Sequence record: PQ438393.1
Strand: one strand, 5' to 3'
Source of the DNA: Escherichia phage vB_Eco_J-01
DNA: 64,000 nucleotides
How positions within the stretch are numbered: the stretch's first letter is position 1; every line of letters starts with the position of its first letter. This document shows positions 13,883 to 16,581 of the stretch, one piece after another. The position numbers and the translations under genes were made by a program. The notes below the pieces were generated by a model. That model searched no databases and was not told the origin of the DNA. It saw nothing but the letters and a program-made list of their open reading frames with translations.

Positions 13883-15616
13883 TTAGTCAACCTGGATGGT
13901 TCCCATAGTACGAAGAACCTCTACATCAACACGGTTGCGGATATCAGTAAATGTTTCATCACGTCCTTCTACTTGTGGTGTAATAACCGTACCATCCCTG
14001 AAGATAACTTTTAACTCATTGTCTTCATCTTGAATATCTTTAAAAGACAGATTATCCACAAGAGAAAGTTTACCATTTGTATCCTTAACAACCTTAATAA
14101 AACCTTTTGCAGAGCGTTTACCAGGATCAGTTTTAGGCTCCTTACTTACCAAAATTTCGTGTTCACCGATGATACTACCTGTTGCTTTAACAGCAAAACC
14201 AAAAGTATCTCGTGTATTGAACTGATAAGTATAACTACCAACACCAAATACAATATTGGAAGCTGCAAAACCTTTCTTCTTCAGTCGGCGTAAGATCTCG
14301 TGTTCTCGTTCAACAGTAATAGAATCACCATAAATCATACCGATGTGCTGATCAAGAACCTTGTAGCCTTTTCGGTTGATAGTACCACCAAACACTTCCC
14401 AAAGGATTTGAATAGAACCTACTGCTTCACAATAAGGAATCTCATAAGTTTCATCAATACAATCAGCAACACTGCAATCCTGAAGAACATTGTAATACTT
14501 ATTAACATCAGCCAAATGAACTACTTCAGTGGCTGTAGCAATACCGTTATTTAAAAGGTCTTCATAGTTAGCAAAAGATTCAACATTGTATCCTGCAACA
14601 ACTTTAACCGGATCTCCTGAATCTGGACGAATAACAAGACGACCATTTCGTGACATAATGGACTCTTTCAATTCTACCAGAATGCGAGTCAAGACAGCCC
14701 AGTAATCATAAGAATCTGCTACATATGAACAAAAACCTTCTGGAACAATTTCTTCAATATAGCGGCGAAGAAACTCTTTCTCTGCTACATAACGAAGCCC
14801 ATCAACATCATCTTTAAGATGTGGGAAATGTTTCTTCAGATCTTCAACAATAGCTCCAATGTTAGTCGTTGCTACTGAATGTTCTGTTGCTGGAATAGAA
14901 CCTGCAACAAACTGATCATAATCAATACCATAGTAATCATGCACAGCTTCAATAGCCAGAATATTATCTGTACCTGTGAAAGATGCCAAATGAGCGATAC
15001 CACTCTTATAACCATCTTCGATATTGCTTAAACCACGTAGGCTAAAGTCATGACACTGGAAATTAACGTGATCAATGTTATCACACGTTGCCATCGCATA
15101 CGCCATAGCGATACGCTTATACTGAAAAGCTGCTGTGGCATTAGTCATTGTCTTCCAAGTTTCATCTGACAAGAGTGTTTCCACATAGTTAGTTAACCAA
15201 AAGAATTTTTCTAAAGTGTTATGCACAGTAAACACAGGAACACCAATAGGACACAAAACACCTTCTGGCAGAGATCGAACTTCTAGCGGAAGATAACCTA
15301 AATCGTGCAATTCTCCCCAACATTCAGCAGAAGGAGCAGAAGCACCTAATGCATTCTTAGACATACGATAAAATTTATTTACTGCTGCACTACGAGACAT
15401 TTTAAAGAAGCCATCCCACATAGTTACAAGAGCATCAGTAACTGCTCGACGAATACCTAAAACAATTACACCACGTGCTTCACGATCTGCATAGTGTGCA
15501 AAGTTTTTATCATTACGAGGAGTTAAATTAGAGAAAATGAGTTTTGTATTTTGGTTGTACATCTGCTTGTGACCAGGTTTATACCAATCAGTAGCAAAAG
15601 GTGCAAAAATATTCAT
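13883..15616 (-). CDS. nadV: nicotinamide phosphoribosyltransferase family protein (NadV-like; Namat candidate)
   Basis: 577 aa; N-terminal signature APFATDWYKPGHKQMY typical of the NAMPT/NadV family; adjacent to a Prs-like gene. Confidence 0.85.
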   Translation of the reverse strand: MNIFAPFATDWYKPGHKQMYNQNTKLIFSNLTPRNDKNFAHYADREARGVIVLGIRRAVTDALVTMWDGFFKMSRSAAVNKFYRMSKNALGASAPSAECWGELHDLGYLPLEVRSLPEGVLCPIGVPVFTVHNTLEKFFWLTNYVETLLSDETWKTMTNATAAFQYKRIAMAYAMATCDNIDHVNFQCHDFSLRGLSNIEDGYKSGIAHLASFTGTDNILAIEAVHDYYGIDYDQFVAGSIPATEHSVATTNIGAIVEDLKKHFPHLKDDVDGLRYVAEKEFLRRYIEEIVPEGFCSYVADSYDYWAVLTRILVELKESIMSRNGRLVIRPDSGDPVKVVAGYNVESFANYEDLLNNGIATATEVVHLADVNKYYNVLQDCSVADCIDETYEIPYCEAVGSIQILWEVFGGTINRKGYKVLDQHIGMIYGDSITVEREHEILRRLKKKGFAASNIVFGVGSYTYQFNTRDTFGFAVKATGSIIGEHEILVSKEPKTDPGKRSAKGFIKVVKDTNGKLSLVDNLSFKDIQDEDNELKVIFRDGTVITPQVEGRDETFTDIRNRVDVEVLRTMGTIQVD

Positions 15617-15646
15617 AGTTATGTCTCCTTGTTTGTTAGTGTGGGA

Positions 15647-15678
15647 GTATCTTACTAAGCATACTCCCTATTGTCAAC
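15647..15678 (-). promoter_or_regulatory. sigma70-like promoter (TTGACA-N17-TAAGAT) overlapping an 8-bp-arm palindrome
   Basis: minus-strand hexamers upstream of nadV; palindrome gggagtat...atactccc (15643-15668) spans the spacer and -10. Confidence 0.4.
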
Positions 15679-15687
15679 ACTTATTAT

Positions 15688-16581
15688 TTAAAAATTCCAC
15701 ACGTATGGAGATACAATTTGTTGTTGCAAATCTGACTGATTCTTAACAAGAACACCGGAATCTTCTTGGATGTTATCTTCCCACACATTAAGAGAATGAA
15801 TGCAGTCAAAGTGCTCACTTAACTCTTTAAGACCTTTAGAAAAGATACCGTGTGTAACATATAGCTCAATCTTACCTGCGTTACGAGCACGTAGCACTTT
15901 AGCCAATTCGATAAAAGTTCTACCACCATCACAGATATCATCTACGATCATCAGGTTACGCTTATTGAAATCCTGTACAGAAATGTCTGTACGAACAATA
16001 GCACCTGTTGCGGTATCTCTAACCTTCTCTGCACAGAACACATCTAAAGACATTTTCTTAGATAATTTAAATATTTTCTTAAGAGCACCACCATCAGGAC
16101 TAACAAGAGCAAAATTCTCCATACGTAACTTCCACTTTAAAGTTTCGTAAGCAATCTCTTCTTGAGGTATTACACAGAGTCTGTCAAACACTGCTGGCGT
16201 AACATCACTATGTGGATCAGCAACGATAACACGTGAGAAATTTAATGAATTAATTATAGAAGCAAAGGCTTTAACTCCGAATGCTTCCCCAGGCTCACAC
16301 ACTCTGTCTTGTCGTGCATACGGCACATACAACATGAGCAAATCAACACAATATGGTTTATGATATAGCATGTTGTCCAATGCATTCTTAGTCATAACCA
16401 AAGTCATCAAGTCTTTAGCAGATCTTACTTCTAAAGTGAGTAAGATTCTGTCTGTAGCATGATTGAAACCTGATAGATTCGTATCTAGTTGAACATGCTG
16501 TTCTCCACCAGAGAATGTAAAGACTTTAACGTCTACATCAGTAACATAACAGTCAACACCATGCAGAATACTAACTTTCAT
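15688..16581 (-). CDS. prs: ribose-phosphate pyrophosphokinase family protein (Prs-like; Adps candidate)
   Basis: 297 aa; PRTase-type motif LMIVDDICDGGRT and overall PRPP synthetase architecture. Confidence 0.8.
   Translation of the reverse strand: MKVSILHGVDCYVTDVDVKVFTFSGGEQHVQLDTNLSGFNHATDRILLTLEVRSAKDLMTLVMTKNALDNMLYHKPYCVDLLMLYVPYARQDRVCEPGEAFGVKAFASIINSLNFSRVIVADPHSDVTPAVFDRLCVIPQEEIAYETLKWKLRMENFALVSPDGGALKKIFKLSKKMSLDVFCAEKVRDTATGAIVRTDISVQDFNKRNLMIVDDICDGGRTFIELAKVLRARNAGKIELYVTHGIFSKGLKELSEHFDCIHSLNVWEDNIQEDSGVLVKNQSDLQQQIVSPYVWNF

Follow-up and report, generated by a model that had tools for sequence, protein, structure and literature searches.

The window analysed here is a stretch of 64,000 nucleotides from a Justusliebigvirus, a phi92-like myophage of E. 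coli. Its DNA is matched at 97-99% identity by 55 phi92-like phage records, and the BASEL phages PaulScherrer (Bas60), EmilieFrey and JohannJBalmer are among its DNA matches. A first-pass annotation, made from the sequence alone, had described adjacent NadV-like and Prs-like genes at 13883-16581, and both open reading frames are present there, co-oriented on the minus strand. The upstream gene, adps (15688..16581), encodes a 297-aa homologue of Prs-family ADP-ribose diphosphokinases that includes MIVDDICDGGRT. The downstream gene, namat (13883..15616), encodes a 577-aa homologue of Nampt-family nicotinamide ADP-ribose transferases with the N-terminus MNIFAPFATDWYKPGH. They are separated by a spacer of 71 nt (15617-15687), in which no open reading frame was found.

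Judged by profile scores, the homology of both proteins is well above chance level. The 577-aa protein matches PF04095 NAPRTase (129.6 bits) and phrog_448 'nicotinamide phosphoribosyl transferase' (625 bits), in agreement with its earlier description as a nicotinamide phosphoribosyltransferase family protein directly downstream of the Prs-like one. Matches of the 297-aa protein are to PF00156 (31.3 bits), PF14572 (28.6 bits) and phrog_619 'ribose-phosphate pyrophosphokinase' (306 bits). None of the ten neighbouring open reading frames has a Pfam match to Macro (Adpp) or RyR (RyDEP) domains.

Names of this kind describe a classical salvage route, in which the Prs-like protein would make PRPP from ribose-5-phosphate, the NadV-like protein would form NMN from PRPP and nicotinamide, and the host NadR/PncC enzymes would complete NAD+. 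The deposited records accordingly read 'ribose-phosphate pyrophosphokinase' and 'nicotinamide/nicotinate phosphoribosyltransferase'. However, identical annotations proved wrong for the gene pairs of phages Bas63 and SPbetaL1, which are representatives of the NARP1 counter-defence pathway.

Candidate expression signals

Promoter-like sites and AGGAG motifs precede both genes on the minus strand. Upstream of adps is TTGACT-N17-TAGAGT (16621..16649), a match to consensus only, and AAGGAG (16594-16589) lies 7 nt upstream of the adps ATG (16581). In the spacer, AGGAG (15629-15625) lies 8 nt upstream of the namat ATG (15616). The sequence TTGACA-N17-TAAGAT that had been noted ahead of namat is indeed found in the spacer (15649..15677, with TTGACA at 15677-15672 and TAAGAT at 15654-15649), and its agreement with the consensus at 10 of 12 positions makes it a candidate promoter. 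By itself this site is not significant, since the 4.5 kb scanned contain 18 promoter-like sites versus 14.4 expected. The motif family TTGACW-N16-18-TAWRMT is nevertheless enriched in the window, with 10 occurrences versus 1.35 expected; none of 100 shuffles reached 10. Similar promoter-like sites stand ahead of two small downstream open reading frames (13890-13862 and 13469-13440).

RNA folding predicts an intercistronic hairpin, GGGAGUA-12 nt-UACUCCC (15643..15668, minus strand), that overlaps, within the internal promoter-like site, both the N17 spacer and the -10 element. The fold of 15617-15690 on this strand has a predicted energy of -15.3 kcal/mol (z = -2.99), and one of 200 shuffles was equally stable. 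The hairpin is not an intrinsic terminator because no U-tract follows it. No Rfam family matches anywhere across 13000-17500, the hairpin included.

The upstream protein groups with Adps

In BLASTP comparisons, the 297-aa protein scores 157 bits (40% identity) with NrsA of Vibrio phage ICP1, 137 bits (36%) with Bas63 Adps, 83 bits with SPbetaL1 Adps (35%) and 72 bits (28%) with E. coli Prs. Its identity to tested homologues is 31-40%. With SPbetaL1 as the reference, pairwise scores do not on their own separate Adps from Prs (83 bits for SPbetaL1 versus 72 for Prs), and the assignment was therefore based on a tree, on profiles of HMM scores and on class-specific alignment columns.

Seven bona fide Prs and 16 reference Adps were placed in a neighbour-joining tree together with the window protein. 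In 200 of 200 bootstraps the Prs were split from all other proteins, with the window protein on the Adps side and ICP1 NrsA, the closest Adps compared, as its sister group. Two profile models could be read in favour of classical salvage: the broad subfamily model TIGR01251, the only Prs model that the window protein passes, is passed narrowly (118 bits versus a cut-off of 113), and NF006629 is passed as well (460 versus 405). On TIGR01251, however, the window protein scores much like Bas63 Adps (138 bits) and SPbetaL1 Adps (106 bits), compared with 423 bits for E. coli Prs. All three phage proteins fall below every NCBIfam Prs equivalog cut-off; the best such score of the window protein is 97.5 bits versus a cut-off of 296. 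E. coli Prs reaches 423-533 bits on the NCBI Prs models.

Residues required for catalysis are conserved in the window Adps (K186/R188, R90-Q91-D92-R93, H124, D163 and D214-D215). K186 is the counterpart of the catalytic lysines K162 of SPbetaL1 Adps, where the K162A mutant is inactive, and K197 of B. subtilis Prs. In E. coli Prs, ribose-5-phosphate is contacted by D170, D220, D221, T225 and T228 (PMC9232217), and the Thr225 side chain binds the 5-phosphate (PMC6332680). An alignment with Prs and Adps, which the first-pass annotation had proposed, reveals that four of these five contacts are kept, as classical salvage would have it, and that Thr225 is lost and replaced by G219. This position is Gly, Tyr or Phe in all 16 reference Adps. 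The change from Thr225 to Gly is a correlative indication that ADP-ribose, rather than ribose-5-phosphate, is the substrate. A PDB search found no solved Adps structure, and a literature search no publication defining ADPR-binding residues; the comparison of ribose-5-phosphate with ADPR contacts is confined to residues known from the Prs side.

The allosteric ADP/Pi site of Prs (R49, S81, R102, S103, R105, Q136, D144, S308, S310 and F313) has been dismantled in the window protein. Only D144 is kept, as D133, and the C-terminal allosteric residues have no counterpart. Compared with class I Prs from E. coli and B. subtilis, the window protein shares the fold family, the ATP-site, Mg and catalytic-loop residues and the ribose-binding D220/D221, but it differs in Thr225, the allosteric site, an unrelated C-terminal segment and its position in a separate clade.

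The downstream protein carries a Namat clamp helix

The best PDB matches of the 577-aa protein are structures of SPbetaL1 Namat (9W5X/9W5W, E 1e-117), compared with an E value of about 4e-48 for human Nampt. An alignment set was assembled from the window protein, four Namat proteins and the Nampt of phage KVP40. BLASTP scores are 398, 380, 333 and 286 bits to the four Namats and 137 bits to KVP40 Nampt; identity to tested Namat homologues is 36-40%. All NAD+-contacting core residues of SPbetaL1 Namat map one to one onto the window protein, and its Nampt-like catalytic core (D13, Y15, F189, R192, D215, A242, the catalytic His, R306, D308 and G360-D361) is conserved there (D10, Y12, F191, R194, D217, A243, H246, R330, D332 and G430-D431).

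Namats have a selectivity clamp with a helix and a loop. The window protein carries the published Namat signature of the clamp helix, G460-SYTYQFNTR-D470, with Tyr at position 3 and Phe at position 7. The corresponding Bas63 segment is GSYTYQYMTRD. This adenine-clamp motif is absent from PRPP-preferring Nampts, whose segments read GGGLLQQLDRD in KVP40 and GGGLLQKLTRD in human, and its presence argues against classical salvage. A literature search matched no publication to structures 9KE8/9KEO (E 2.8e-100), and they were set aside as a Namat reference, their motif being GAQTYQRNTRD, which lacks the two aromatics.

The clamp loop, T32-PRNDKNF-39, is less typical. The third residue of a Namat clamp loop is Arg, Lys or Tyr; in loops with Lys or Tyr, it is the following residue that stacks on adenine. 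In the window loop N35-D36-K37-N38-F39 the Lys is present and is followed by Asn, with the aromatic F39 one position later. Bas63 likewise has Lys at the third position, but there Trp follows directly; SPbetaL1 uses Arg40. The window loop is longer by two residues than that of Bas63 and by six than that of SPbetaL1. Relative to SPbetaL1 Namat, the window protein also has insertions at aa 252-275 (24 aa) and aa 343-399 (57 aa). Bas63, like the window protein, has a large insertion behind the GDPV segment.

The same comparisons bear on an arrangement like that of KVP40 (NARP2), in which a PRPP-preferring Nampt would act with an NMN adenylyltransferase and the Prs-like protein would serve only as a supplier of PRPP. 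The superfamily is common to both, and KVP40 Nampt aligns over its full length with 34% identity. Yet it is the most distant comparator (137 versus 286-398 bits) and has no clamp motif. In the near-identical phage Nernie, the regions that correspond to the window from about 5,500 to its end have no annotated adenylyltransferase. Furthermore, Osterman et al. place NARP2 Nampts in a clade of their own and report no phage with both pathways. The chance that the pair operates in this manner is negligible.

Related systems in other phages

The NARP1 pair of this lineage is real but not new, because near-identical phi92 genes were catalogued as NARP1 in the discovery paper. The window Adps differs from phi92 gp107 at 2 of 297 residues and the Namat from gp108 at 4 of 577; with Bas60 (bas60_0254/0255) included, the differences are 1-2 and 4-5 residues, respectively. 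Genus-level lineage, gene order, spacer and flanks are alike in phi92, Bas60 and the window, with no difference of substance. The operon was first spotted in four BASEL phages, and Table S1 of that study ('Adps homologs') includes FR775895_00103 and MZ501100_00239, both with 'Namat within 10 genes: Yes', while Table S2 ('Adps-associated') has FR775895_00104 and MZ501100_00240 (Osterman et al. 2024, bioRxiv 10.1101/2024.02.11.579819). These phi92 and Bas60 entries are bioinformatic assignments, not experiments.

Experiments have been carried out on more distant relatives. Bas63 (JohannRWettstein, genes 79-80) is the genetic founding example of NARP1. As in the window, its Adps gene precedes the Namat gene with a short gap between them, and its Adps has the loop DDICDGGRT. 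The window is not Bas63 itself, which is a Felixounavirus rather than a Justusliebigvirus and belongs to another phage family, with 36% (Adps) and 40% (Namat) protein identity and a different genomic neighbourhood. The operon of the Bacillus phage SPbetaL1 is the biochemical and structural reference; its Namat is 38% identical to that of the window, and its Adps loop reads DDLSSFGGT. NrsA/NrsB of ICP1 form a system that regenerates NAD+ against Nezha in a different host and phage, and the chemistry assigned to ICP1 is itself inferred from homology to Bas63.

Other systems share with the window pair the presumed aim of restoring NAD+ during infection and a related Nampt-family enzyme. NARP2 (KVP40 Nampt plus Nmnat), NARP1-AP (with the Macro-domain protein Adpp) and NARP1 with RyDEP all employ extra genes that are absent in or beside the window pair.

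Proposed pathway and its alternatives

We interpret the gene pair as the NARP1 counter-defence pathway (Adps and Namat) of a phi92-like phage, with a probability of about 0.9. This match had been proposed in the first-pass annotation, and near-identity to the catalogued pair, the tree, the residue losses and the clamp helix support it. The chemistry had been considered undecidable by eye; sequence tools sort the pair to NARP1, and the reactions are extrapolated from homologues with 31-40% identity. Gene arrangement fits as well. On the same strand, a Namat homologue follows the window Adps after 71 nt, and a Namat gene in the immediate vicinity is a feature of 97% of the Adps clade.

By analogy with Bas63, SPbetaL1, FADO, DyoEdafos and ICP1, from which both substrates and anti-defence phenotype are predicted, the pathway would begin once NAD+ has been cleaved to ADP-ribose and nicotinamide by an NADase defence of the host (SIR2-HerA/Nezha, DSR, Thoeris, SEFIR or similar). 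Adps would then transfer pyrophosphate from ATP to the 1''-OH of ADP-ribose, yielding ADPR-pyrophosphate (ADPR-PP). Namat would allow nicotinamide to displace the pyrophosphate, forming NAD+ directly. In this way NAD+ would be rebuilt without NMN and without host NadR/PncC.

Several results from the homologues underlie this scheme. Bas63 deleted for the operon formed about 20-fold fewer plaques on SIR2-HerA. Protection from NAD+-depleting defence, independent of host pncC/nadR, has been demonstrated for the operons of Bas63, FADO and SPbetaL1. Wild-type Bas63 still beat the defence in a host deleted for pncC and nadR, a result that speaks against classical salvage. Purified SPbetaL1 Adps uses ADPR and not ribose-5-phosphate, and purified Adps gave no product in a Prs-type control reaction. 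SPbetaL1 Namat prefers ADPR-PP over PRPP. It does retain NMN synthesis from PRPP in vitro, so the window Namat may have some classical salvage activity. As the explanation of the pair, classical salvage is very unlikely.

The same chemistry might have another main purpose, namely recycling of the ADP-ribose and nicotinamide that NAD+-consuming enzymes of the phage itself set free. A SIR2-family protein is encoded in the window (51285-52097; PF02146, 81 bits), and bacterial DNA that is not mobile has NARP1 homologues as well, a hint at housekeeping roles (PMC12774641). However, the SIR2 homologue is found in 983 phage records from many phage groups, so a link to the NARP1 pair does not look specific, and the two loci lie 35 kb apart on opposite strands. 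ADPR-PP has been detected in vivo and, in Bas63, only in the presence of the host defence. Recycling as the main purpose is highly improbable.

Counter-defence by NARP1 could still take a modified form in this lineage. It is unlikely that the phi92-type enzymes depart from a plain copy of those of Bas63 and SPbetaL1 by having different or broader substrates, or that the pathway also recycles products of the phage SIR2-family protein. An altered substrate range could include, for example, further ADPR derivatives or another pyridine base. Features that could shift substrates are the K-N-F clamp loop, the 24-aa and 57-aa Namat insertions and, in Adps, the DGGRT 5-phosphate loop.

Implications

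The deposited names, PRPP synthetase and NadV-type transferase, probably assign the wrong chemistry to this pair. NARP1 is a means by which phages reverse NAD+ depletion, an effector step common to many bacterial immune systems. The presence of this pathway in a phi92-like phage helps to predict which defences such phages overcome and would be useful in choosing therapeutic E. coli phages.

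Gene pair and intergenic spacer

The Prs-like gene (adps; 15688..16581, minus strand) encodes a 297-aa protein that includes MIVDDICDGGRT, and the NadV-like gene (namat; 13883..15616, minus strand) encodes a 577-aa protein that begins with MNIFAPFATDWYKPGH. Adjacent NadV-like and Prs-like genes had been recognized here in the first-pass annotation, and both families are recovered by database searches. The NadV-like protein matches PF04095 NAPRTase (Pfam; 129.6 bits) and phrog_448 'nicotinamide phosphoribosyl transferase' (PHROGs; 625 bits). Its neighbor matches PF00156 (31.3 bits) and PF14572 (28.6 bits) in Pfam and phrog_619 'ribose-phosphate pyrophosphokinase' (306 bits) in PHROGs.

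The two genes are co-oriented and separated by a 71-nt gap that contains no ORF. The TTGACA-N17-TAAGAT site described earlier is present in this spacer on the minus strand (15677-15672 and 15654-15649), as a consensus match that is a putative rather than a demonstrated promoter. There are 18 promoter-like sites in 4.5 kb versus 14.4 expected, so a single match is not significant alone. The TTGACW-N16-18-TAWRMT motif family occurs 10 times in the window versus 1.35 expected, and comparable sites are found in front of adps and of the two small ORFs that come next. An AGGAG lies 3' of the spacer site, 8 nt ahead of the namat ATG. The spacer can also form a stable hairpin (15643-15668, minus strand; GGGAGUA-12 nt-UACUCCC; -15.3 kcal/mol, z -2.99) that overlaps the -10 element. 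This hairpin is not an intrinsic terminator because no U-tract follows it, and it might serve in processing or regulation.

The Prs-like protein

HMM scores and a tree place the Prs-like protein with Adps, the enzyme that pyrophosphorylates ADP-ribose (ADPR) in the NARP1 pathway. Among the proteins compared, its closest BLASTP matches are the ICP1 homologue NrsA (157 bits, 40% identity) and Bas63 Adps (137 bits, 36%), followed by the DyoEdafos (91 bits) and SPbetaL1 (83 bits) proteins and E. coli Prs (72 bits, 28%). Against TIGR01251 (NCBIfam) it scores 118 bits, compared to 138 for Bas63 Adps, 106 for SPbetaL1 Adps and 423 for E. coli Prs; none of the first three approaches the Prs equivalog cut-offs. 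An NJ tree was built from the window protein, 16 reference Adps (five experimentally studied, from Bas63, SPbetaL1, FADO, DyoEdafos and ICP1, and eleven from Osterman's table) and seven bona fide Prs (E. coli, Acinetobacter, Sphingomonas, B. subtilis, Listeria, Rhodococcus and Nostoc). Prs proteins split from all else in 200/200 bootstraps, and the window protein adjoins the Vibrio phage ICP1/RYC pair.

In E. coli Prs, residues D170, D220, D221, T225 and T228 hydrogen-bond ribose-5-phosphate (PMC9232217), and the 5-phosphate rests on the backbone of D224-T225-G226 together with the side chain of T225 (PMC6332680). The window protein keeps D163, D214, D215 and T222 among these contacts and has Gly219 at the T225 position. 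This column is Gly, Tyr or Phe in 16/16 reference Adps and Thr or Ser in 7/7 Prs. At six further class-separating columns (G93->P, R105->G, L130->P, A132->S, Q134->V and A246->L) the window protein always has the Adps state. ATP-binding and catalytic residues are kept (F23, E27, R90, D92, R93, H124, K186 and R188). Only 1/10 residues of the allosteric ADP/Pi site of E. coli Prs (R49, S81, R102, S103, R105, Q136, D144, S308, S310 and F313; PMC6332680) is retained, and the C-terminus shows no relationship to the Prs C-terminus. This comparison with bona fide Prs and Adps is the check suggested in the first-pass annotation. A PDB search returned no Adps structure, and a literature search returned no paper defining ADPR contacts. 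The residue correlations suggest a diphosphokinase that combines the Prs catalytic machinery with a remodelled 5-phosphate pocket and lacks an ADP feedback site.

The NadV-like protein

The solved structures closest to the NadV-like protein are 9W5X/9W5W (E 1e-117), the nicotinamide and NAD+ complexes of SPbetaL1 Namat; human Nampt follows at ~4e-48. BLASTP scores are 286-398 bits for four Namats and 137 for KVP40 Nampt. Residues of the core NAD+ contacts correspond one-to-one (D10, Y12, F191, R194, D217, A243, H246, R330, D332 and G430-D431). A Namat-specific 'selectivity clamp' has been defined by Lan et al. (PMC12774641). Its helix reads GSYTYQFNTRD (460-470) in the window protein, like GSYTYQYMTRD in Bas63, GSFTYQYNTRD in SPbetaL1, GSFTYQHNTRD in DyoEdafos and GSYTYQYVTCD in ICP1, whereas it is GGGLLQQLDRD in the PRPP-preferring KVP40 Nampt and GGGLLQKLTRD in human Nampt. 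The clamp loop deviates in that Lys37 is followed by Asn38 and Phe39, in contrast to Lys-Trp in Bas63; Phe39 is a candidate for the stacking role. Relative to the crystallised SPbetaL1 Namat, the protein carries insertions at aa 252-275 (24 aa) and 343-399 (57 aa); the insertion at the second site is even larger in Bas63.

Phage lineage and gene neighborhood

Across the 3.5 kb around the pair, 55 phage records of the phi92 group (genus Justusliebigvirus) match at 97-99% identity. Phages Nernie and EC.P2 encode the same Adps-like protein without a single substitution; that of BASEL phage Bas60 (PaulScherrer, bas60_0254) differs by one residue and phi92 gp107 by two. For the NadV-like protein, the counterparts in these four phages are 3-5 residues away. 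Window 13883-16581 matches, at 98.5-98.8% identity, four GenBank records labelled 'Campylobacter phage' (MG065639, MG065645, MG065656 and MG065689; A150, A145, C3 and A110a). The host given there, C. jejuni, looks questionable; alternatively, these records could be contaminants.

The pair heads a leftward transcription unit that runs on into three small ORFs and 16 tRNA genes predicted by ARAGORN (10391-13136, minus strand). One of these, tRNA-Met (13061-13136), is unannotated in near-identical Nernie and has no Rfam match at the gathering threshold; Nernie has a 'tRNA-OTHER' at ~12808-12886 that ARAGORN does not call. A 151-nt 'hypothetical tRNA' annotated within the phi92 Namat coding sequence (FR775895.2 49736-49886, ~window 14874-15024) is probably an annotation artefact, since ARAGORN finds no tRNA there.

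Divergent plus-strand genes begin ~410 bp upstream of the pair. The 409-bp intergenic region holds a GC-rich stem-loop (16800-16835; CCCCC...GGGGG, with an inner CGCTGCGCTCGGCG stem and then TTTTT on the plus strand). It is the sole terminator-like site in 13000-17500, and no plus-strand gene ends just ahead of it. Four adjoining plus-strand genes resembling an RNA-repair cassette (18584-21366) lie ~2 kb from the pair and near the tRNA cluster: one with a cyclic-phosphate-processing receiver domain (PF20274, 53.9 bits), one for a calcineurin-like phosphoesterase (19476-20027), one for a T4-type RNA ligase (20029-20961) and one for an AAA_33 P-loop protein (20962-21366). Such a cassette may counter tRNA-cleaving host nucleases. 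A MazG/PRA-PH-like nucleotide pyrophosphohydrolase (23421-24143, plus strand; PF01503, 31 bits) follows within a few kb of the pair. Elsewhere in the genome is a 270-aa SIR2-family protein (51285-52097, plus strand; PF02146, 81 bits) that could consume NAD+. Its tblastn homologues occur in 983 phage records from many phage groups, suggesting a gene widespread in phages and not a partner of NARP1.

Ten neighbouring ORFs contain no Macro (Adpp) or RyR domain of the kind that marks the NARP1-AP and RyDEP variants. No NMN adenylyltransferase, the partner of Nampt in NARP2, is annotated in the regions of Nernie matching ~window 5,500 to the end, and according to Osterman et al. (bioRxiv 10.1101/2024.02.11.579819) no phage carries both NARP1 and NARP2.

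A probable NARP1 pathway

Osterman et al. noticed the operon in four BASEL phages. Its deletion from Bas63 causes a ~20-fold plaque drop on SIR2-HerA, rescue is independent of host pncC/nadR, and ADPR-pyrophosphate (ADPR-PP) is detected in infected cells. The purified SPbetaL1 Prs-like enzyme pyrophosphorylates ADP-ribose and not ribose-5-phosphate, and its NadV-like partner favours ADPR-PP over PRPP, with NAD+ as the direct product. By analogy, host NADase effectors would cut NAD+ to ADPR and nicotinamide, Adps would move pyrophosphate from ATP onto ADPR, and Namat would join nicotinamide to ADPR-PP to restore NAD+.

We consider this the most likely reading of the window pair, with a probability of about 0.9. 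The NARP1 proposal of the first-pass annotation gains support from the tree, the HMM scores, Gly219, the clamp helix motif and the listing of near-identical phi92 and Bas60 proteins by Osterman et al. Some doubt persists because the chemistry is carried over from homologues at 31-40% identity; Bas63, a Felixounavirus, shares only 36% (Adps) and 40% (Namat) identity with the window proteins. Doubt also persists because SPbetaL1 Namat still makes NMN from PRPP in vitro. Classical nicotinamide salvage by these two genes seems very improbable.

The assignment of phi92-type pairs to NARP1 is bioinformatic rather than experimental. Table S1 of Osterman et al. ('Adps homologs') includes phi92 FR775895_00103 and PaulScherrer MZ501100_00239, each with 'Namat within 10 genes: Yes', and Table S2 ('Adps-associated') includes FR775895_00104 and MZ501100_00240. 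The gene pair described here is therefore already known, catalogued as NARP1 through these entries.
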